Positions 5,272-63,480 of a DNA stretch of 64,000 nucleotides are shown one piece after another. Source of the stretch: Dehalococcoidia bacterium (lineage in GTDB: Bacteria; Chloroflexota; Dehalococcoidia; GIF9; AB-539-J10); assembly GCA_030612025.1 (NCBI GenBank), contig JAUWOR010000007.1:15104-79103 (forward strand), given 5' to 3'. Below the pieces are notes generated by a model that was given only the letters and a program-made list of their open reading frames with translations, did not search any database and was not told the origin of the DNA. The translations under genes were made by a program, and so were the position numbers. The stretch's first letter is position 1; each line of letters begins with the position of its first letter.

Positions 5272-5400
5272 GTGGTGTGAGATTCTTCGTGGAGTTTATC
5301 CTGGTGAGCCGAAGCTCTGAACGAAGTGAAGAGGAGATTCTTGGGTCGCTTCGCTCCCTTAGAACGACAAGGAGCGAAGGGCTCAGAATGACAAAAGGGA
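5225..5400. repeat. REP-like palindromic repeat cluster (GTCATTCTGAG / CTCAGAATGAC family)
   Basis: Three tandem degenerate units each contain GAAGCGAAG and AGAATCTC cores and end with CGAAGGGCTCAGAATGACA. Related copies lie at 6112-6150, 57935-58050, 59145-59182, 63320-63480, and a divergent one at 15883-15920. Confidence 0.65.
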
Positions 5401-6176: not shown

Positions 6177-7256
6177 ATGAAAGGAGAAAGGGAAATGCAA
6201 ATTCCAAAATTAGACCTTGAGTATTCAACCAGGCTTTGCTTTGGCTGTGGCGAAGATAATCCCATAGGGTTAAAGCTGAAACCTGTTTACGATGGAGAAA
6301 AGGTCAGGGCAGAGTTCACCCCAGGAGAATACCACCAAGGCTGGGATAATGTAACTCATGCGGGTATTCTCTATACCCTCCTTGATGAAGTAACTGCTTA
6401 CGTCATCCTCTGCTGCGGCATCGATTTCGGCGTTACTGCTAAAAGCGAGGTGAGATTCAAACAAGTAGCCCCCATCAATGAGCCAATCCAAATCTCCGCC
6501 TGGGTCACCAAATTGACAAGAAGACTAGTGGAAACCAAGGGAGTGCTTGCCCTTAAAGATAACACAGTTATAGCTGAAGGCAGCTCTTTGTTCTACGTAT
6601 GGAGGCGATCAAAAAAGACAATCCTCTGGGATATGGATGGGGTTATTGCTAATTCTGGTTCATTTCACTTTGCTGCCTGGCAGGAAACCTTCGCCAAGAG
6701 GGGAATAAACTTTACTAAAAAAGATTTTACCAAGTTTTTTGGCACTAGAAATGACTTCATAATTCGTAACGTTCTCGGAGAAGAATTGTCAGAAGAGAAT
6801 GTTAAAAGCATAGTACAGGAAAAGGAGGCAAGTTTTCGAGAGAAGGCAAAGGGGAATATCAAGCCATTTCCCGGGGTGGTTAAGCTACTAAACACGATTA
6901 AGAGGGGAAACTTCAAGCAAGCCCTGGTTTCCTCAGCACCAAAGGAAAACATAGATTTGCTCAGTAGCGAACTTAACCTCGAGGGAATTTTCGATTGTAT
7001 TGTTTCTGGTAGGGAAGTAGCGGAAAGTAAGCCCAGTCCCCAGATATCTCTTTTAGCTGCGGAGAAGTTGGGGGCGGAGCCCAAGGATTGCATTGTAATT
7101 GAAGACTCCCCCTTCGGCGTTAAAGCAGCTAAAGCTGCTGGAATGAGATGTCTAGCGGTAACCAACACCCATCCCAAACAAGACCTTGAAGACGCTGACA
7201 GAGTAGTTGATTCTTTAGAAAAAGTAGATTTAATCACCCTGATACAAAGGGTGTAA
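6177..7256 (+). CDS. fusion protein: PaaI/4HBT hotdog thioesterase (N) + HAD-IA hydrolase, beta-phosphoglucomutase-like (C)
   Basis: The N-terminal half has the CFGCGxDNPxGLxL hotdog thioesterase signature. The C-terminal half has HAD motif I (WDMDGVIANS) and later motifs. The frame is continuous with no internal stop. Confidence 0.6.
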   Translation: MKGEREMQIPKLDLEYSTRLCFGCGEDNPIGLKLKPVYDGEKVRAEFTPGEYHQGWDNVTHAGILYTLLDEVTAYVILCCGIDFGVTAKSEVRFKQVAPINEPIQISAWVTKLTRRLVETKGVLALKDNTVIAEGSSLFYVWRRSKKTILWDMDGVIANSGSFHFAAWQETFAKRGINFTKKDFTKFFGTRNDFIIRNVLGEELSEENVKSIVQEKEASFREKAKGNIKPFPGVVKLLNTIKRGNFKQALVSSAPKENIDLLSSELNLEGIFDCIVSGREVAESKPSPQISLLAAEKLGAEPKDCIVIEDSPFGVKAAKAAGMRCLAVTNTHPKQDLEDADRVVDSLEKVDLITLIQRV

Positions 7257-20708: not shown

Positions 20709-20838
20709 GGGCGATTAAAAATGTAGTTGCCCAATTTATTGGGCGACTGTGCCTGATAAATCAGGCAACTACAAAAATTTGGCGGTGAGGCATCTCTAGA
20801 ATGCTCAAAATTGAACGAGAAGGTGAAATTAAACAGCC
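20709..20838 (+). repeat. MITE-like element, copy A (GGCTGTTTAA...TTAAACAGCC termini)
   Basis: About 85% identical to the copies at 28020-28207 and 36959-37088. It contains the GCCTGATAAATCAGGC hairpin and ends 27 nt before the glyA ATG with an AAGGAGG RBS in between. Confidence 0.7.
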
Positions 20839-20865
20839 TAAAGAAAGGAAGGAGGTAAGTTAAAG

Positions 20866-28019: not shown

Positions 28020-28207
28020 GGCTGTTTAAAAATGTAGTTGCCCTGTGTAGTAGCGAAGATTACTACACAGGGCGACTGTGCCTGATAAATCAAGCAACTT
28101 TGGCCCTCCATTCATTAAGGCCTGATAAATCAGGCAACTACGAAAATTTGGGAGTGAAACACCTCCGAGATGGCTGAAATTGAACGGGGAATCAAAATTA
28201 AACAGCC
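28020..28207 (+). repeat. MITE-like element, copy B (with nested hairpin repeat and internal partial duplication)
   Basis: The termini and core match copy A. The 33-nt hairpin is inserted in reverse orientation and the CCTGATAAATCA(G/A)GCAACT segment is duplicated. It lies about 195 nt upstream of the co-oriented gene at 28402. Confidence 0.7.
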
Positions 28208-35923: not shown

Positions 35924-35935
35924 CTTACCCCCAAA

Positions 35936-36006
35936 GCCAGCGGTCGGATTCGAACCGACGACCGGCGGTTTACGAAACCGCTGCTCTACCCCTGAGCTAC
36001 GCTGGC
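35936..36006 (-). tRNA. tRNA-Thr (anticodon CGT)
   Basis: A hand-folded cloverleaf shows acceptor GCCAGCG/CGCTGGC, a D-arm GCTCAGGGGTAGAGC, anticodon stem-loop GCGGT-TTCGTAA-ACCGC and T-arm GTCGG-TTCGAAT-CCGAC. CCA is not encoded. Confidence 0.85.
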
Positions 36007-36372
36007 ACGAGATTAGTATAGCTGATGAGATAGGCTCTGACAAACGGTCTTACTAAAATCGCCAAAGCTACTCAGATAGGGGAGTTGAACAACGGTTTTC
36101 TCTAAAACAGACTTCAGAATGATGGGCACACCAATCTATATATAGCGTCCTAAATAATTGCGCATAGACCCTTCAGGCTGAGCCCTCAGGACGAAGTCCT
36201 GTGCAGGGATTAAATCCTAAGCAATATCTAAATTCAAAGATAAAAAATCAAAATTACAAATCAAAGCTCAAAATTAAAATTGCGGGCGCTCTTGACCATC
36301 TATTTTGAATTTTGCTCTGTCATTTTTCCTTTTGCATTTTGATACTTGAATTTATTTAGAATTTGCCCGTAT

Positions 36373-36933: not shown

Positions 36934-36958
36934 AAGCTTGCCTCCTTCTTTATTATAA

Positions 36959-37106
36959 AGCTGTTTAATTTTGATTCTCCGTTCAATTTCAGCCATCTCA
37001 GAGGTGTTTCATCCCCAAATTTTTGTAGTTGCCTGATTCATCAGGCACAGTCGCCCAATAAATTGGGCAACTACATTTTTAAACAGCCTTTCTTATAAGG
37101 CTGTTT
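36959..37106 (-). repeat. MITE-like element, copy C (reverse orientation) with extra terminal hairpin
   Basis: The reverse complement matches copies A and B end-to-end. It ends 25 nt upstream of the ppiB ATG with an AAGGAGG RBS, and an additional AAACAGCC-loop-GGCTGTTT hairpin sits at its distal end. Confidence 0.7.
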
Positions 37107-37136: not shown

Positions 37137-37487
37137 CTAAGAATCCCTCTTCTCACTTGCAAGGGACTTCTCCAGTTCAGCAATCAAATAAGGGAGATCT
37201 TCGATAATCGTTTGATAAAGGATGTCAAAGTCAATGTCGTCATAGCCGTGAATCAGACGGTTACGCATCCCGATGATTTGTAGCCAAGGAATGCCACCAT
37301 ACTTGGCCTGCCCTTCCGTGGAGACGCGGTTAGCTGCCTCTCCAACAACCTCGATCAATCTCACCAGCGAAAGGTTGAGCATTCGCTCGTTTTCAATGTT
37401 ATGCCTCGTTTTCCCGGCTGCCAATTCCACCGCCTCCTTTGCAGCGTCAAGCATATGTCGCAATCGGATCAAGTCATTCTTTGGCAT
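37137..37487 (-). CDS. hepT: HepT-like RNase toxin (DUF86)
   Basis: The C-terminal Rx4HxY motif (RNRLIHGY) is present and the gene overlaps the upstream mntA by 14 nt. Confidence 0.8.
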   Translation of the reverse strand: MPKNDLIRLRHMLDAAKEAVELAAGKTRHNIENERMLNLSLVRLIEVVGEAANRVSTEGQAKYGGIPWLQIIGMRNRLIHGYDDIDFDILYQTIIEDLPYLIAELEKSLASEKRDS

Positions 37488-37788: not shown

Positions 37789-37887
37789 TGCATCTTAATC
37801 ATTTCTCAGAGGCATATTCTGCCTGGAGAAACTCACGGCTATCGAATCTGCCACAACATTGAATTTTAGCACGAATTCTACTAGCTA

Positions 37888-38160
37888 CTCAAAAATTCGC
37901 CTGCTTGATGAAAACTAAAATCAATCACAAAATTCCTTATAATCCTCCCTCCCCTAGCGGGAGGGAGGAAGAGGGAGGGGGAAATTCACCCTCACCTTAC
38001 CTCTCTTGTAAGGAAGAAAAATTCATTACATGAGAGGTATTTTTTCACGATACCATGCGGAAGACTATAAGAATTCATGTAACATGCACCTGGTTACATC
38101 ACCAGGGCGAGTAAACCTAGCCCACCGCCTCTTCCTCAAGGAGAGACCGCTTCTTTTTCC
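37888..38160 (+). repeat. ~275-bp structured direct repeat R1
   Basis: About 90% identical to 40400-40674. Internal hairpins include CCTCCCTCCCC-TAGC-GGGAGGGAGG and ACCTCTCTTGTAA...TTACATGAGAGGT. The 3' end carries a hairpin followed by a T-tract. Confidence 0.7.
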
Positions 38161-38229
38161 TAACGGAGTTTGTTAAACGTTCTGCTATTCCGAAAAGAAG
38201 CGCCAATCGAATTCTAGAGAAATTAAATG

Positions 38230-39200
38230 AACAAAATACAATTAAACTTACGTGATTATCCCTTGACAACAAGTAATCCCTATATTATAATGGAAGCATG
38301 AAGAAATACACAATAGTAGATTTCAACAAAGATTTCCCCGATGATGACGCTTGCCTACAATGGCTAAAGAACTATCTTTATCCTAATGGTATCTTCTGCA
38401 AACAATGTGGAATGGTCACAACACACCACAAAGTAGGTAAACGGCCGTGCTATGCCTGTGCCCGATGTGGTAGTCATGTTTACCCGATGGTAGGGACTAT
38501 CTTTGAGAAATCCGTTACACCGCTCAAGCTCTGGTTCTATGCTATCTTCCTTATAAGTTCTACTCGCTGCGGTATATCAGCCAAGCAACTTCAACGAGAG
38601 TTAGGAGTTACTTACAAAACAGCTTGGCGTATATTCCATGCAATTCGCTCCCTACTACGAGAGGACACCAAGCCTATGTCCGGAGAAGTTGAAATAGACG
38701 AAACTTACATCGGTGGGAAAGCTCATGGCAAGCGTGGCTGTGGTGCCGGGAATAAGACCCTTGTATTCGGCATGGCACAACGACAGGGCGACCTGAAGGC
38801 CTTTGCAACTAGCAACGTCAAACACTCAACTATCTATCCTATTATGAAGCAGCATATCTTACCCCAAAGTATGATTTACACCGATGAATTTACGACGTAC
38901 GATAACCTAAACCAACAAGGTTATCATCACAAACAGGTGCATCATGCCTCAAAAGTCTACGTTTCTGGCAATGCACACACCAATACAGTCGAAGGCTTTT
39001 GGAGTGTATTAAAGTGTGGTATTGATGGCGTGTATCATGCCGTAAGTGAGAAGCACTTACAAGGTTATATCAACGAGTATAGTTTCAGGTATAATCACAG
39101 GCAAGATGATAAGCCTATGTTTAAGACGGGTTTGGAGAAGATTTAGGCTTTTCTATTCGGCGACAAGCCTTCTTTAGGGCGAAGCTAAAGCTCTTCTTTG
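38230..39200 (+). mobile_element. IS1595-family insertion sequence (boundaries approximate)
   Basis: A single transposase ORF of about 0.85 kb has short flanks. The terminal inverted repeats could not be defined by eye. Confidence 0.45.
38298..39146 (+). CDS. IS1595-family (ISXO2-like) transposase
   Basis: An N-terminal zinc-ribbon (CKQCG...CYACARCG) is followed by a DDE domain with an IS1595-like C-terminus (NTVEGFWSVLKCGIDGVYHAVSEKHLQGYINEYSFRYNHR). Confidence 0.8.
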   Translation: MKKYTIVDFNKDFPDDDACLQWLKNYLYPNGIFCKQCGMVTTHHKVGKRPCYACARCGSHVYPMVGTIFEKSVTPLKLWFYAIFLISSTRCGISAKQLQRELGVTYKTAWRIFHAIRSLLREDTKPMSGEVEIDETYIGGKAHGKRGCGAGNKTLVFGMAQRQGDLKAFATSNVKHSTIYPIMKQHILPQSMIYTDEFTTYDNLNQQGYHHKQVHHASKVYVSGNAHTNTVEGFWSVLKCGIDGVYHAVSEKHLQGYINEYSFRYNHRQDDKPMFKTGLEKI

Positions 39201-39233
39201 TAGTAGAGATTTGCTTTATGTCTATCGGTTTTG

Positions 39234-39611
39234 TCATGGCTCTATAATACGCAACCTGTCATCGAGTCCTAGGCTTATTTGTAGAGCTTTATCGACTTCG
39301 TCCATTTTCTCTTTACTCAGTTCACCACACTTATCACCCAGTCGTGACTTTTCTATCGTCATTATTGTTGCCAAATTAATATTACAACCCTTCGGTAACC
39401 CACTCTCCTGAGCCGTTACAGGCACAAGGAAAGGAAATGGCTTCTCTGGGGCAGTACTACAACTAGCAACAATTGTTGTTGGGCTGACTTCATTTCCAAT
39501 ATCATTTTGAATTATTAAGGCTGGTCTTGTGCCTATTATTTCAGTACCCCTACCAGGACTCCAATCTACCCAATATAATTCCCCACGCCTACACTTAATC
39601 GCCATTGCCAC
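39234..39611 (-). CDS. mazF: PemK/MazF-family mRNA interferase toxin
   Basis: N-terminal GELYWVDWSPGRGTEIIGTRPALIIQND matches the MazF/PemK fold signature. Confidence 0.8.
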   Translation of the reverse strand: MAMAIKCRRGELYWVDWSPGRGTEIIGTRPALIIQNDIGNEVSPTTIVASCSTAPEKPFPFLVPVTAQESGLPKGCNINLATIMTIEKSRLGDKCGELSKEKMDEVDKALQISLGLDDRLRIIEP

Positions 39612-39612
39612 A

Positions 39613-39858
39613 TTATTTCCACTCAGGCAAGACCTCGTGTGCTATTTCCATAGCTTCTCTCGCAACTTGCAGGTTTCCCTCTGCCATGACTCTATAACCC
39701 TCTACCATCTCCTCACGTAAACGCTTATCTGCAAACTCCTGCAAACACGTAGAAAACACTTTGCTACGACTTACATTCCACTCGTTTGCAATTTCATCGA
39801 TCAATGCGATTAAGTCACGAGGCACACTAATAGTCAACTTCGCCACCTTCACAGTCAT
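39613..39858 (-). CDS. antitoxin (RHH/MazE-like) for the MazF-family toxin
   Basis: An 81-aa ORF sits immediately upstream with only a 1-nt gap. An N-terminal beta-strand plus helices is consistent with an RHH/SpoVT-AbrB antitoxin. Confidence 0.6.
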   Translation of the reverse strand: MTVKVAKLTISVPRDLIALIDEIANEWNVSRSKVFSTCLQEFADKRLREEMVEGYRVMAEGNLQVAREAMEIAHEVLPEWK

Positions 39859-40029
39859 AACTTTCCTCCTTACATTATGTTATGATATATTTGGAGTAAA
39901 AATATAACTTAACAAAAATTATTTGTCAACTTGCGTTGATGGGATAATCACGTAAAATTATTAAAGAGGGAAAGGGAACAAGACCGCCAGTTTTCATATT
40001 TTCAGAATTAATCGAAATCGTTGGGTAAA

Positions 40030-40330
40030 GAATTTGTGCGTGTCATAAATGGCGTGCAACCCCAATAGTGCGCCACAAAATAGAAATTATGGCGTGCAAG
40101 CAATTTAGTGGGACATAGATGGCTCGCAAATCGATTTTTTGTCCAATATCCCTAGAAAAATGACTTGTGGGCGATATTGTGCATCATAATCGGCAATTTT
40201 TGGCACACAAAAAGATTTGTGTGCCATTTTGGAATGCAAAGACGATTAGTGTGCCACAATTCTTGATTTATGGCACACAAGAAGGTTTGTGGGACATAAA
40301 TGAGACACAAAAGGCAGTTTGAGACTGCAA
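40030..40330. promoter_or_regulatory. iteron-like array of TGGCRCRCAA / TTGYGYGCCA sites
   Basis: At least 10 copies occur in both orientations within 300 bp. One is a perfect 10-bp inverted repeat spaced by 6 bp (TGGCACACAA-AAAGAT-TTGTGTGCCA at 40201-40226). The array lies upstream of the mazEF-like operon. Confidence 0.5.
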
Positions 40331-40399
40331 TGCAACGATATTCGGCAGAAATAAAGAGAGGGTAGTCAGGTCTGGCACTACCTCAGCTAAAGCGCTGCA

Positions 40400-40674
40400 C
40401 TCAGAAAATCGCCTGCTTGATGAAAACTATAGTCAATCACAAAATTCCTTATAATCCTCCCTCCCCTAGCGGGAGGGAGTTAGAGGGAGGGGGAAATTCA
40501 CCCTCACCTAACCTCTCTTGTAAGGAAGAAAAATTCATTACATGAGAGGTATTTTTTCACGATACTATGCGGAAGACTATAAGAATTTATGTAACATGCG
40601 CCCGGTTATATCACCAGGGCGAGTAACTTTGCTCCGACGGTCTCTTCCTCGTGAAGAGGCCGTTTTCTTTTTTC
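40400..40674 (+). repeat. ~275-bp structured direct repeat R2
   Basis: This is the second copy of R1. It ends with GGTCTCTTC-CTCGT-GAAGAGGCC followed by GTTTTCTTTTTTC, a terminator-like hairpin plus T-tract. Confidence 0.7.
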
Positions 40675-40779
40675 TATGATTCTCAACGCATAAAGTATAT
40701 CTTCAAATGGCGCTAAGGCATATTAGGCCGATGAAGTTTAAGGAGAGCCTAAAGATTTATCGAAGGCTCTGAGCTCTAC

Positions 40780-42231
40780 CTAAAACCTAGTTTTTCGCCG
40801 CACCTGAAACGTGAATGAAAGAAGTTTCTCGAGAAAGTCATTTACCGCCTTCGACTTGTCATTATAGGCTATCGTCTCTTTACCAATCATGAGGGTAGCA
40901 TAAGCGAGTTTTGCCTCTTCTGACCCTGCCATTTCCCGCTTGTAGTCAGGGTTGACTTTATTAACTTGGACAACGCCGCTCAGGAAACGACTATGATGCG
41001 AAGGGCCATCCTCGAAAGGCACCTCCGCAAAAGCAATTCGCATACCACCCGGGCGTGAAGTGTCACCAGGCTTAGTTGACCGAGTTCCTGTCTCCCTTCC
41101 CTTGTGGGTTCCCGTATGTTGACTGATAGGTGCCTTTTGCCTTCGTAGTCCACCAAGAAGCTCTAAACCTTTGAAATCTCCTTGATTAAGGATTTCCCTC
41201 GCAAGCTCAATCGCCCTCCGTTGAATCTGTGTAAGCTTTTTCTCCTCCGCTTCCAGCCTTAATTCGTCTACCTCATCCTCAATCGAAGGGCGGAGCTTGT
41301 CAAGTTCTAACAAAAATTGGATCCAGTCCTGATTTTCTTCAAAACCAGTCCTTGCAGGAAGTGGCTTAAGAAAGTCAGCATCAATATAACCCTTGAGAAA
41401 TCCGCTTGCATAAACGCTTTCCTCAAGACCGTAGGCTTGAATCGCCTTCACATCATCAACTACAGGAATCCCAGTGTGCCGAATGGAAACTTTGCTTTTC
41501 CCGGAAGCATCAAACCAAAATTGACAATTAAAAACCTTTTGCCAGTCGCTTGAAAAATGCACTTCTCTAAACGCTTCCCCAACACCGGGGAGACTTATTT
41601 CTAATGGTTCCACCTTATAAATCTTGCCAGCGCAAGTTATCGTGATTTTTAAATTCCCTTCCCTTAGGTAAGCATCAAACTTTTCAGCGAACACATGCTG
41701 TAGTCGTTCCGCTCCTAAGGGGCCACGCAACCTTGTAGGGTCATGCTGTAACCCAGCGATAACGATAGTCATCCCGGGTTCCTTGCGAGATTCTCTTTTA
41801 GTCGCTGTTTCTATCTCAGCATCGTCAGACTGCTTTCTAAGAACAACCTTAATAGTGGGCATGCCTTTTGCTTTCTTGCTATAAAAAGTGCAACTTGTTC
41901 CAACCTGGTTGAAGGCAAAAATCCCAATGCCTAATTCTCCAATTTGAGGTATAGTTAATCCCGGCTTTACTGAATCAGCAACTTTATCAAGTGCTGCCTC
42001 AAATTCCTTCTGGGCCATTCCCGGGGAATTATAGTCAATAGTTATCTTTCCCTTCTCAAGAAGGTAACCTACCTCGCAGGGTCCTTCCATTTCTCCTTTA
42101 TCTCTAGCCTTTCGCCATTCATCCACAGCATTGCTAATATATTCTTTGATAGCATCAGCAGGGTTACGATAAAGGCTTCCAATATAGGTGAGAAGGTTAG
42201 CCATGTTTCCTCGGATTTTCTTCTTTGCCAT
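40780..42231 (-). CDS. GHKL-superfamily ATPase (HATPase_c / MORC-Hsp90-MutL-like Bergerat fold) with coiled-coil C-terminal region
   Basis: The N box (EYISNAVDEW), G1 box (DYNSPGM) and G2 box (GELGIGIFA) occur in the canonical order within the first ~110 aa. A predicted coiled coil (EDEVDELRLEAEEKKLTQIQRRAIELARE) precedes a ~130-aa C-terminal region of unknown fold. Confidence 0.55.
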   Translation of the reverse strand: MAKKKIRGNMANLLTYIGSLYRNPADAIKEYISNAVDEWRKARDKGEMEGPCEVGYLLEKGKITIDYNSPGMAQKEFEAALDKVADSVKPGLTIPQIGELGIGIFAFNQVGTSCTFYSKKAKGMPTIKVVLRKQSDDAEIETATKRESRKEPGMTIVIAGLQHDPTRLRGPLGAERLQHVFAEKFDAYLREGNLKITITCAGKIYKVEPLEISLPGVGEAFREVHFSSDWQKVFNCQFWFDASGKSKVSIRHTGIPVVDDVKAIQAYGLEESVYASGFLKGYIDADFLKPLPARTGFEENQDWIQFLLELDKLRPSIEDEVDELRLEAEEKKLTQIQRRAIELAREILNQGDFKGLELLGGLRRQKAPISQHTGTHKGRETGTRSTKPGDTSRPGGMRIAFAEVPFEDGPSHHSRFLSGVVQVNKVNPDYKREMAGSEEAKLAYATLMIGKETIAYNDKSKAVNDFLEKLLSFTFQVRRKTRF

Positions 42232-42965: not shown

Positions 42966-43197
42966 TTTTAGCTTCCATCACAAGGTGCAGTTGTCCAAGT
43001 AATCGTAATTGTAACACTTGCAGAGGAATTATTCGCTTCACTCAGATTGCTAGTTACTCATTATCAGGAATACTGGTATCAGTAGCAGAAGCACTGCTAT
43101 CAGAGATACCTAAGCAAACTGCTATCAACACCAGAGTAACTAAGACAATCAACTTTTCCATCATTCCTACTTAGTCTGGCTCCTGTTCACTCAATTT

Positions 43198-43560: not shown

Positions 43561-43757
43561 TTTAGCCGAATTATACCCTCAACAAACCTCAAATAGAAGA
43601 GCCGTTAAGTTTGGGGATAGATAGTTTGAGGCTTTACTGTGGGCTTAAGGTTTCACCTTCAAGGGATAGCCCATAATCCTAGAGTTTTCAACCATATCAG
43701 GAGGTCAAGATTAGTCTGAGGTCATTTCGTGGCATTTACCCTGTGCAGTAAGAAATG

Positions 43758-44984: not shown

Positions 44985-45346
44985 GTCTAATATAACCCCT
45001 TAGGTGATATTTGTCAATACCAGCCTCCTTTCATGGCGGCCGTGGGTCCCACAGTCTTGGGACTCAATTAACTGAACTACTGCTCAGGCAAAGACAGAGT
45101 TCACCAAGTAATCGTAATTGTAGCACTTGCTGAGGAATCAGAGATACACTAGGTCGGTAAGGTTTGAGGATAAGTTAAGGCTTTGTCGTAGGCTTGAGGC
45201 TCTGTCTACAGATGGCGAAAAAGACTAAATCAGATCTGAAGGGTGTTGGAGCATGGAGGAGTAACTTTTGAGAACGGATTTGGCTCTTGGTGGCAAACAC
45301 AACAGTACGCTATATTGCGCAATTGAAAAGGATTAACAAACCCAAG

Positions 45347-47599: not shown

Positions 47600-47668
47600 C
47601 AAACTGCTGCTCTGCCCCTGAGCTACGCTGGCAACGAAATTGGTATAGCTGATGGCAACGATTTTGAC
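47600..47668 (-). pseudogene. tRNA-Thr 5'-half fragment plus upstream flank (att-like direct repeat)
   Basis: The reverse complement of 47607-47632 is GCCAGCGTAGCTCAGGGGCAGAGCAG, matching tRNA-Thr positions 1-26 with 1 mismatch. Homology continues about 35 nt into the 5' flank (TTGGTATAGCTGATG vs TTAGTATAGCTGATG at 36026-36040) and diverges after about tRNA position 33. Confidence 0.6.
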
Positions 47669-57934: not shown

Positions 57935-58050
57935 ACTCTTATGTCATCTTGAGCCCTTCACTTCCTGTCATTCTGAGGAAGCGAAGCGACCGAAGAATCT
58001 CGCTCAGGGTAAACTCCGCGAAGGGTCTAAGGAATGACAAGGAGGCGAAC
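57935..58050. repeat. REP-like palindromic repeat (same family)
   Basis: GTCATCTTGAGCCCTTCAC...GTCATTCTGAGGAAGCGAAGCGACCGAAGAATCTCGCTCAGGG...AGGAATGACA, lying between tyrS and the aminotransferase gene. Confidence 0.65.
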
Positions 58051-63319: not shown

Positions 63320-63480
63320 CGTTTTTTGTCATTCTGAGCCCTATGGGCGAGGAATCTCTTAATAGACTCTTCGCGGAGCTTGTCCTGAGAAAGATTCTTC
63401 GGTCGCTGACCCTTTCGCTATACTCAGGGCTTCGGCTCTTCCCCAGAATGACAAGAGGCGAAGGACTCAGAATGACAATT
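63320..63480. repeat. REP-like palindromic repeat cluster (same family)
   Basis: GTCATTCTGAGCCCTATGGGCGAGGAATCTC...CCCCAGAATGACAAGAGGCGAAGGACTCAGAATGACA, lying between rpsU and cca. Confidence 0.65.

Follow-up and report, generated by a model that had tools for sequence, protein, structure and literature searches.

Why should two nearly identical blocks of about 275 nucleotides stand on either side of a transposase gene and a mazEF-like toxin-antitoxin (TA) pair? This question is raised by a 64,000-nucleotide stretch (the window) of contig JAUWOR010000007.1 from a Dehalococcoidia bacterium of the phylum Chloroflexota, in which the two blocks, R1 and R2, lie in direct orientation with the transposase and mazEF genes between them. 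An earlier analysis made without database searches (hereafter the sequence-only reading) had taken them for discrete transcribed units, such as small RNAs (sRNAs), bracketing an IS1595 transposase/TA cassette. We find that R is a non-coding spacer module of a variable TA/defence island beside a tRNA-Thr gene. The explanation that we favour, at a probability of roughly 0.55, is that R is a duplicated intergenic module built round triplex motifs of the BoxC/PIT type, which would serve as a 3'-end or spacer element and as a substrate for recombination.

A BLAST search of R1 against the window aligned R1 (37887-38162) with R2 (40399-40676) at 252 identities in 279 positions (90.3%, four gap positions, E 1e-105) and returned no third copy in the 64 kb; the description of two direct repeats of ~275 bp and ~90% identity round the transposase/TA segment is thus borne out. 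Identity is spread unevenly, with 228 nucleotides at 95% (37887-38114 and 40399-40626) and the last 38 at 74% in a repeat search. R is non-coding and structured, and the possibility that it is merely a fragment of a protein gene or of the end of an insertion sequence (IS) can be set aside. Between alleles, its reading frames differ by non-synonymous changes and by stop codons, and a protein search with a 132-residue frame spanning one R copy found nothing outside this locus, which together argue against a protein-gene fragment; the small reading frames of R2 were not on record in database look-ups. Two peptide candidates were rejected: a plus-strand peptide of 19 residues is interrupted by stops in four alleles, and a minus-strand peptide of 27-28 residues is altered by the hairpin flip described below and absent from the distant homologue L011. 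Neither is hydrophobic, so the look of a type I toxin is missing in both.

The history of the locus was read from its alleles. A metagenome scan with the long hairpin of R (hairpin B) recovered seven contigs, L020-L026, all of them alleles of the window locus at 85-95% identity, which argues that R is not a high-copy mobile element. In what follows, R_A denotes the copy beside the MNT gene (the R1 position) and R_B the copy downstream of a Fic gene (the R2 position). An older layout is preserved in L024 and in ten further contigs (L027-L036) from several samples, and comprises MNT-HepT on the minus strand, R_A with its tail, the Fic promoter, Fic on the plus strand, a palindrome array, R_B with its tail, and convergent minus-strand genes. 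The intact plus-strand Fic gene encodes 361 residues (Pfam Fic_N and Fic). The promoter predicted for it, TTGACA-18-TATTCT, comes with a palindromic operator and is located ~250 nt 3' of the R_A terminator. In the window two remnants, together equal to the last 50 residues, are all that is left of Fic, and one of them is fused to R1 at 38160/61, which identifies the 3' border of R1 as a deletion breakpoint. As the aligned alleles show, a deletion joined the end of R1 to about codon 312 of Fic in the window and in L026, and the IS later split the remnant.

The palindrome array between Fic and R_B (consensus aTGGCACACAA-N6-8-TTGTGTGCCAt, with 30- and 40-nt spacings alternating) is conserved in L024, L025 and L026 and was not reported by Tandem Repeats Finder. 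It looks like an array of binding sites, operator or centromere-like, for a dimeric DNA-binding protein. The array together with R2 gave no BLAST match to plasmid and phage sequences, and two scans of viral contigs gave 0 matches. On the other side of R_A, the HepT gene is intact in the window (116 residues); it has a 218-bp internal deletion (37211-37428) in L021, L023, L024 and L027, alleles in which only a 47-residue remnant is called.

The transposase gene and mazEF are one IS1595-family element with a TA passenger, younger than the repeat duplication. L026 and L024 run straight from window position 38250 to 39953, giving the empty site ACAAT-TAAAATTA-TTAAAG with a single TAAAATTA; from these empty-site alleles it follows that the IS arrived after R had been duplicated. 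In the window the element is flanked by an 8-bp target duplication (TAAACTTA / TAAAATTA), and both of its inverted repeats start with CGTGATTATCCC. An 8-bp target duplication is among the features of the IS1595 family, and the segment 38251-39952 combines it with terminal inverted repeats and a DDE_Tnp_IS1595 transposase. Compared with IS1595 insertion sequences that carry passenger genes, the element has the same domains, inverted repeats and 8-bp duplication, and R lies outside it. The tie between the R copies and the IS/TA cassette, which the sequence-only reading had emphasized, is therefore accidental, given the empty sites and an IS with its own inverted repeats and target duplication.

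Several further observations concern this element. It has outward-facing predicted promoters of consensus quality and sigma-70-like type, one for each transcription unit. That of the transposase, TTGACA-17-TATAAT, falls partly within the left inverted repeat; that of mazEF, TTGACA-17-TATATT, is set a little inward of the right one's outer end, just within it. Besides the window, a single contig on record has the exact transposase sequence. Contig L001, 99.95% identical to the window, differs at 6 positions in 11.9 kb, of which 4 fall within 62 bp of mazF (39388-39449); there, Pro55 is changed to a premature stop, so that part of the population seems to carry an inactivated MazF toxin.

Each R copy consists of a 5' arm, hairpin A, a C-rich tail with hairpin B, an almost invariant block of ~50 nt (region III), a variable 3' arm able to pair with the 5' arm, and a terminator. 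Both internal hairpins singled out by the sequence-only reading are present, namely CCTCCCTCCCC/GGGAGGGAGG at 37944-37969 and 40456-40481, and ACCTCTCTTGTAA/TTACATGAGAGGT at 37998-38039 and 40510-40551, the latter with a single central T-T mismatch. That the copies are strongly structured was also confirmed: the plus-strand RNA fold has z values of -5.7 (R1) and -5.9 (R2), with 0 of 200 shuffles as good, and the minus strand is weaker (z -4.6). The statement that each repeat ends in a GC-rich hairpin and T-tract holds in full for R2 but not for R1, whose stem is degraded (-6.6 versus -18.3 kcal/mol). R2 has the GC-rich stem-loop and immediate T-tract of an intrinsic terminator, with the stem kept in 8 alleles; terminator stems are preserved through U-G, C-G and U-A changes that would mismatch on the opposite strand, and the T-tracts are better in the R copies downstream of Fic. 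The unit naturally continues into a segment that we call tail b, which is absent after R1, where it was lost by deletion.

Conservation along R is uneven as well. Among ten R copies the mean pairwise divergence is 2.6% in region III, 6% in the hairpin A part and 17-20% in the 3' arm and terminator; four-fold sites of MNT and PPIase, the adjoining genes, diverge by 6-16%. Between copies, identity of the core is uniform at 92-98%, and the 3' part tracks orthology, R1 grouping with the MNT-adjoining copies and R2 with L022 and L025. Region III carries ACTATA/ACTATG three times. Outside the locus, a homologue of ~70% identity was found on the minus strand of L011 (2536-2696), a contig of an uncultured Dehalococcoidales metagenome-assembled genome (MAG). 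Only the core of R is represented in it, beginning with the 5' arm and running over the hairpin pair as far as TATGCGG..ACTATAAT; the 3' arm and terminator are missing. Its neighbours are a GGDEF/HD-GYP gene and a methyltransferase gene, both of which have their 3' ends towards it. R_B and the L011 homologue each stand 300-400 nt downstream of a co-oriented gene, in a convergent spacer.

The two hairpins identify the kind of module at hand. Under the defining pattern of PMC4666352, a class II intrastrand-triplex motif has on its 5' side a pyrimidine arm (at least 8-9 nt), which a loop of 3-6 nt connects to a purine arm complementary to it throughout; after a further loop of 1-6 nt comes a third arm that mirrors the purine arm (G*G-C and A*A-T triads). 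In hairpin A of both copies, the pyrimidine arm CTCCCTCCC and the purine arm GGGAGGGAG are complementary with 0 mismatches, and GAGGGAGGG, after the loop gaa or tta, is the exact mirror of GGGAGGGAG; these are the sole perfect 9-nt class II motifs in the 64 kb. Hairpin A reads CCTCCCTCCCC-TAGC-GGGAGGGAG, then TTA (GAA in R1), then GAGGGAGGGGG, or, as a 37-nt sequence, CCTCCCTCCCCTAGCGGGAGGGAGTTAGAGGGAGGGG. The hairpin B part reads CACCCTCACC-TAA, hairpin B, then TATTTTTT. Nothing in the window fits the published TM_ECO consensus, CCCTCNCCC-N3-6-GGGNGAGGG-N3-GGGNGAGGG, hairpin A being a variant in sequence and hairpin B (CCTCTC..GAGAGG-TTA-GGTGAGGG) a degenerate form. Judged by these features, hairpin A is a class II intrastrand-triplex motif and hairpin B a degenerate, inverted BoxC/PIT (TM_ECO) unit. 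The hairpins that had been read as a sign of an sRNA thus belong to a known class of DNA repeat, BoxC/PIT/TM, and the purine-motif triplex is unable to form in RNA (PMC4666352). A G-quadruplex is a possible alternative structure for the hairpin A region, where the pattern GGG-A-GGG-N7-GGG-A-GGGGG arises automatically from the mirror-arm design.

Similar pairs were found elsewhere in the phylum. A pattern of 31 specified bases, made up of hairpin A with its G-tail and expected by chance far less than once, was scanned against 185,579 species genomes and matched 14 loci, all in Chloroflexota/Dehalococcoidia MAGs, several per MAG and mostly intergenic. What these loci have in common is only a unit of ~40 nt, usually with a nearby B unit, CCCTCNCCC-YWR-CCCTCTCCC-loop-GGGAGAGGG, the tails mostly facing each other. 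Seven of the B units in the Chloroflexota loci are exact matches to the published E. coli TM_ECO. Exact TM_ECO/BoxC matches in Chloroflexota MAGs (L006, L009, L013, L014, L016 and L019) imply that a non-coding motif of ~35 nt is common to more than one phylum.

At least six rearrangements have occurred within R or within ~120 nt of it (Table 1). In R1 and R2 alike, the interior of hairpin B (37998-38039 and 40510-40551) is the reverse complement of what all other alleles (L020-L026) carry. Since both paralogues have the flip in common, we infer that a palindrome was flipped and then spread between R1 and R2 by gene conversion. The suggestion that homologous recombination between the direct repeats could remove the intervening segment is sound in part: ~230 bp at 95% identity is a plausible RecA substrate, but no recombined single-repeat allele was found among 17 related contigs.

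Table 1. Positions of R, its parts, the neighbouring features and the rearrangements at the site, numbered from the first nucleotide of the window.
Feature	Position	Strand	Basis or remark
R1	37887-38160	+	copy adjoining the divergent MNT-HepT operon; 3' border is a deletion breakpoint fused to the Fic remnant
R2	40399-40676	+	copy 3' of the Fic locus; convergent with a minus-strand gene cluster
Hairpin A of R1	37945-37979	+	perfect class II intrastrand-triplex motif, CTCCCTCCC-ctagc-GGGAGGGAG-gaa-GAGGGAGGG
Hairpin A of R2	40457-40491	+	perfect class II intrastrand-triplex motif
C-rich tail CACCCTCACC and hairpin B of R1	37987-38039	+	degenerate BoxC/TM unit, inverted orientation
Region III, almost invariant block	38040-38088	+	TATTTTTTCACGATACCATGCGGAAGACTATAAGAATTCATGTAAC; partly conserved in L011
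R1 terminator-like hairpin and T-tract, decayed	38121-38160	+	fold energy
R2 intrinsic terminator	40636-40674	+	12-pair stem, then T-tract TTCTTTTTTC; G-U pairs valid on the plus strand only
Tail b	40677-40790	+	natural continuation of the R unit, to about 40744-40790; present after both R copies in L024/L027
Third copy of the 3' part of tail b	45143-45210	+	other intergenic spacer of the island; nhmmer E 3e-8, alignment
Fic remnant, codons about 312-339	38166-38249	+	tblastn with L024 Fic protein, 75% identity
Fic remnant, codons 338-361 and stop	39954-40028	+	tblastn, 92% identity
Palindrome array, ~8 units	40030-40330		TGGCACACAA-N6-8-TTGTGTGCCA, 30-40-nt spacing, directly after the Fic stop
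IS1595-family element	38251-39952		1702 bp; empty site in L026 and L024; inverted repeats; Pfam
Transposase of the element	38298-39146	+	DDE_Tnp_IS1595 PF12762, Zn_ribbon_IS1595 PF12760
mazF passenger	39234-39611	-	PemK domain (Pfam)
mazE passenger	39613-39858	-	RHH domain (Pfam)
Rearrangement: R duplication borders			
Rearrangement: Fic deletion	38160/61		
Rearrangement: replacement in L026	from 40399 onward		everything replaced
Rearrangement: hairpin B interior flipped			in R1 and R2
Rearrangement: 18-nt deletion of hairpin B			in L024B (short version)
Rearrangement: IS insertion			

Together, these observations show the following course of events. The R unit, with a tail of ~70-115 nt, had already been duplicated around the Fic gene and palindrome array before the sampled strains diverged; the deletion that fused R1 to the last 50 Fic codons followed in the window lineage, and the IS1595-family element with mazEF afterwards inserted into the Fic remnant, an order that the alleles show. 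At the centre of R lies an inverted pair of BoxC/PIT type, in which the mirror G-tail of hairpin A and the C-tail of hairpin B point towards each other. The copy 3' of Fic may act as a 3'-end module, providing a terminator and stable hairpins between convergent transcription units, and hairpin- or triplex-prone DNA combined with duplicated homology would turn the site into a hotspot, prone to deletions and inversions as well as to gene conversion and the replacement of cassettes. The R copies, lying outside the IS, would then be both cause and scar of local rearrangement. The attractive picture of repeats that belong to an IS/TA cassette is thereby replaced by ordered events: duplication, deletion, IS insertion.

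Some observations weigh against this explanation. Neither a terminator nor a recombination role accounts for the low divergence of region III or for the core shared with L011, which points to some other constraint, and R_A has no co-oriented upstream gene to terminate. In the earlier work on E. coli PIT elements, as far as it is cited in PMC4666352, these showed no promoter or terminator activity. Changes in the long-range helix that could close R (37896-37920 with 38095-38118) are one-sided and wobble-compatible, with ~9 substitutions that keep pairing against 4 that break it (estimated probability ~0.03 under a crude neutral model), and the alignment holds 5 double changes, a number reached in 2 of 500 shuffles. 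These figures hint at selection on the plus-strand RNA fold.

The same figures favour the reading of R as a gene for a new structured sRNA of ~230-280 nt on the plus strand, closed by that helix, with an internal promoter and its own terminator, in which the BoxC-like pair has been co-opted as RNA hairpins. The fold z values, the terminator G-U pairs that are valid on the plus strand only, and a core far more conserved than four-fold sites all fit such a gene, and 96.2% of cells are paired as against 95.4% in shuffles (0 of 500 reach it). R_A moreover lies in a divergent spacer without an upstream plus-strand gene, so that its terminator would serve only a transcript begun in R. We nevertheless consider an sRNA unlikely. 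No Rfam family matched R, either at gathering thresholds or at E values up to 10 (best scores in Rfam 15, 17-22 bits against thresholds of 50-93, E >1; only tRNA-Thr passes in the window, and it is also all that ARAGORN reports there). The search for covarying base pairs that had been proposed as a check yielded only weak signals: there are no compensatory changes among alleles of this locus, most of the double changes are contributed by L011 alone, a distant and partial homologue that lacks the 3' arm and terminator, and an alternative set of local hairpins fits the substitutions almost as well. None of the promoter candidates within R is both canonical and conserved; TATAAT at 37939 varies to CATAAT, TGTAAT and TATAAC, and TTCACG-16-TATAAG lacks the final T, with the RNA from that site being the fastest-evolving part. 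The R1 terminator, finally, has decayed. More doubtful still is a broader conjecture, that Dehalococcoidia have in the core of ~170-280 nt (5' arm, triplex pair, block, 3' arm and terminator) a new element, either a structured RNA or a nucleoprotein one, which has domesticated a BoxC pair and marks the borders of exchangeable TA/defence cassettes. If true, the core would be a plus-strand regulatory RNA, or a hairpin/triplex (or G-quadruplex) switching site that programs cassette turnover.

Cassette exchange could also be the work of a dedicated recombinase for which R with its tail is an att-like site. In three contexts homology between alleles stops precisely at the 5' border of R, the cassette next to the tail differs among the window, L024, L025, L022 and L026, parts of the tail recur in two other island spacers, and ACTATA/ACTATG occurs three times in the invariant block. 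An att-like site is improbable all the same, as the island (36.0-47.6 kb) encodes no integrase or recombinase, inspection of the borders revealed no integron-type core sites or conserved dyad, and ordinary homologous recombination plus deletion account for the same junctions; an integron attC site, with neither R''/R' cores nor IntI, was rejected by inspection. Equally, R_A stands upstream of Fic in the same orientation, and its conserved core followed by a variable terminator is the usual pattern of a riboswitch, yet a cis-acting leader (attenuator or riboswitch-like) for Fic is very improbable: the predicted Fic promoter lies downstream of R, and R_B and the L011 copy face convergent genes, which leaves nothing for them to regulate. 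That R is a miniature inverted-repeat transposable element (MITE) inserted twice is very improbable as well. Imperfect inverted repeats near the core ends, the related core in a different genome and context (L011) and other mobile short repeats in the same genome would suit a MITE, but no allele has an empty site for R, there is no target duplication, all 7 metagenome matches are this locus, and only 2 copies exist in the 64 kb. Could R1 and R2 instead bound a composite element in which the IS1595 transposase and mazEF travel as one? Nothing speaks for this except the position of R on either side of the cassette. The idea is refuted, and we give it next to no credence: in the empty-site alleles both R positions or their flanks are still in place, inverted repeats and a target duplication belong to the IS itself, and the R copies are direct rather than inverted and flank the Fic gene in IS-free strains.

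The surrounding island is itself delimited by a repeat. A 54-nt direct repeat (91% identity; 35975-36027 and 47601-47654) consisting of the 5' half of tRNA-Thr with upstream sequence brackets 11.6 kb that hold PPIase, HepT-MNT, the Fic remnant, mazEF, a HATPase_c_3 protein and a HigBA-like pair; the tRNA-Thr gene lies at 35935-36006 on the minus strand. Two further island spacers (45143-45210 and 43593-43657) contain the 3' portion of tail b (TAGGTCGGTGAAGTTTGAGGATAG..TTGAGGCTTTATCG..AGGCTTGAGG), and a module, GGATTTGGCTCTTGGTGGCAAACA, found at 45262-45312, is also present between R_A and the Fic promoter in L021, L023, L024 and L027. Given these recurring pieces, the island spacers have several sequence modules in common. 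Two spacers also hold a 41-nt direct repeat (90%; 42989-43029 and 45098-45138). A separate family of intergenic repeats of ~146 bp with 84-93% identity (36937-37082, 20715-20859 and 28120-28206) carries paired hairpins (37024-37075). Finally, a short repeat family (..TGTCATTCTGAGGAAGCGAAGCGACCGAAGAATCTC..) occurs at 57938-58029, 5334-5397 and 63363-63478 of the window and at 6565-6720 and 10704-10844 of L021; since the L021 copies stand at two sites that are empty in the window, this pattern suggests a mobile, MITE-like element.

How does R compare with the known families of intergenic repeats? In enterobacteria, BIME/REP clusters and ERIC (IRU) elements form intergenic mosaics of 100-300 bp that combine palindromic repeats with conserved linkers; their typical place is 3' of a gene or in a convergent spacer, and they act as RNA 3'-end stabilisers or terminators and as recombination substrates. 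The convergent spacers that hold R_B and the L011 copy are the usual home of elements of the REP, BIME and BoxC type. R differs in that it has no sequence similarity to the BIME/REP/ERIC elements and occurs at 2 per locus rather than in tens to hundreds, and the GTAG/CGTC tag of REP (PMC3733652) is not seen beside the R stems. The BoxC/PIT/TM_ECO class offers a closer counterpart. BoxC and PIT elements were described by Hoyne et al. 2000, as cited in PMC4666352, and TM_ECO was reported in 262 proteobacterial genomes (Holder et al. 2015, PMC4666352); according to the same paper, the motifs are always intergenic, at times form inverted tandems, and lie at loci far more rearranged between strains than control loci. 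R has the same succession of pyrimidine arm, 3-6-nt loop, purine arm, 3-nt loop (TTA/CTA) and mirror purine arm, and it too is intergenic, holds its two units as an inverted pair, and is set in a locus unusually rearranged between strains. On the minus strand, hairpin B with its tail (CCTCTC..GAGAGG-TTA-GGTGAGGGTG) is recognisably like TM_ECO CCCTCTCCC..GGGAGAGGG-TTA-GGGTGAGGG. Unlike TM_ECO, however, hairpin A has the arm sequence GGGAGGGAG with its mirror GAGGGAGGG, hairpin B is degenerate with a lengthened stem, and the host is a member of the Chloroflexota rather than one of the Proteobacteria of PMC4666352; the R pair is also embedded in a unit of 275-390 nt with an invariant block and a terminator, which E. 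coli BoxC does not have. BoxC/PIT-type motifs, including exact matches to the E. coli consensus, thus occur in Chloroflexota, again at rearrangement junctions, and these data lend independent support, here in a defence/TA island, to the proposed tie between triplex motifs and genome instability.

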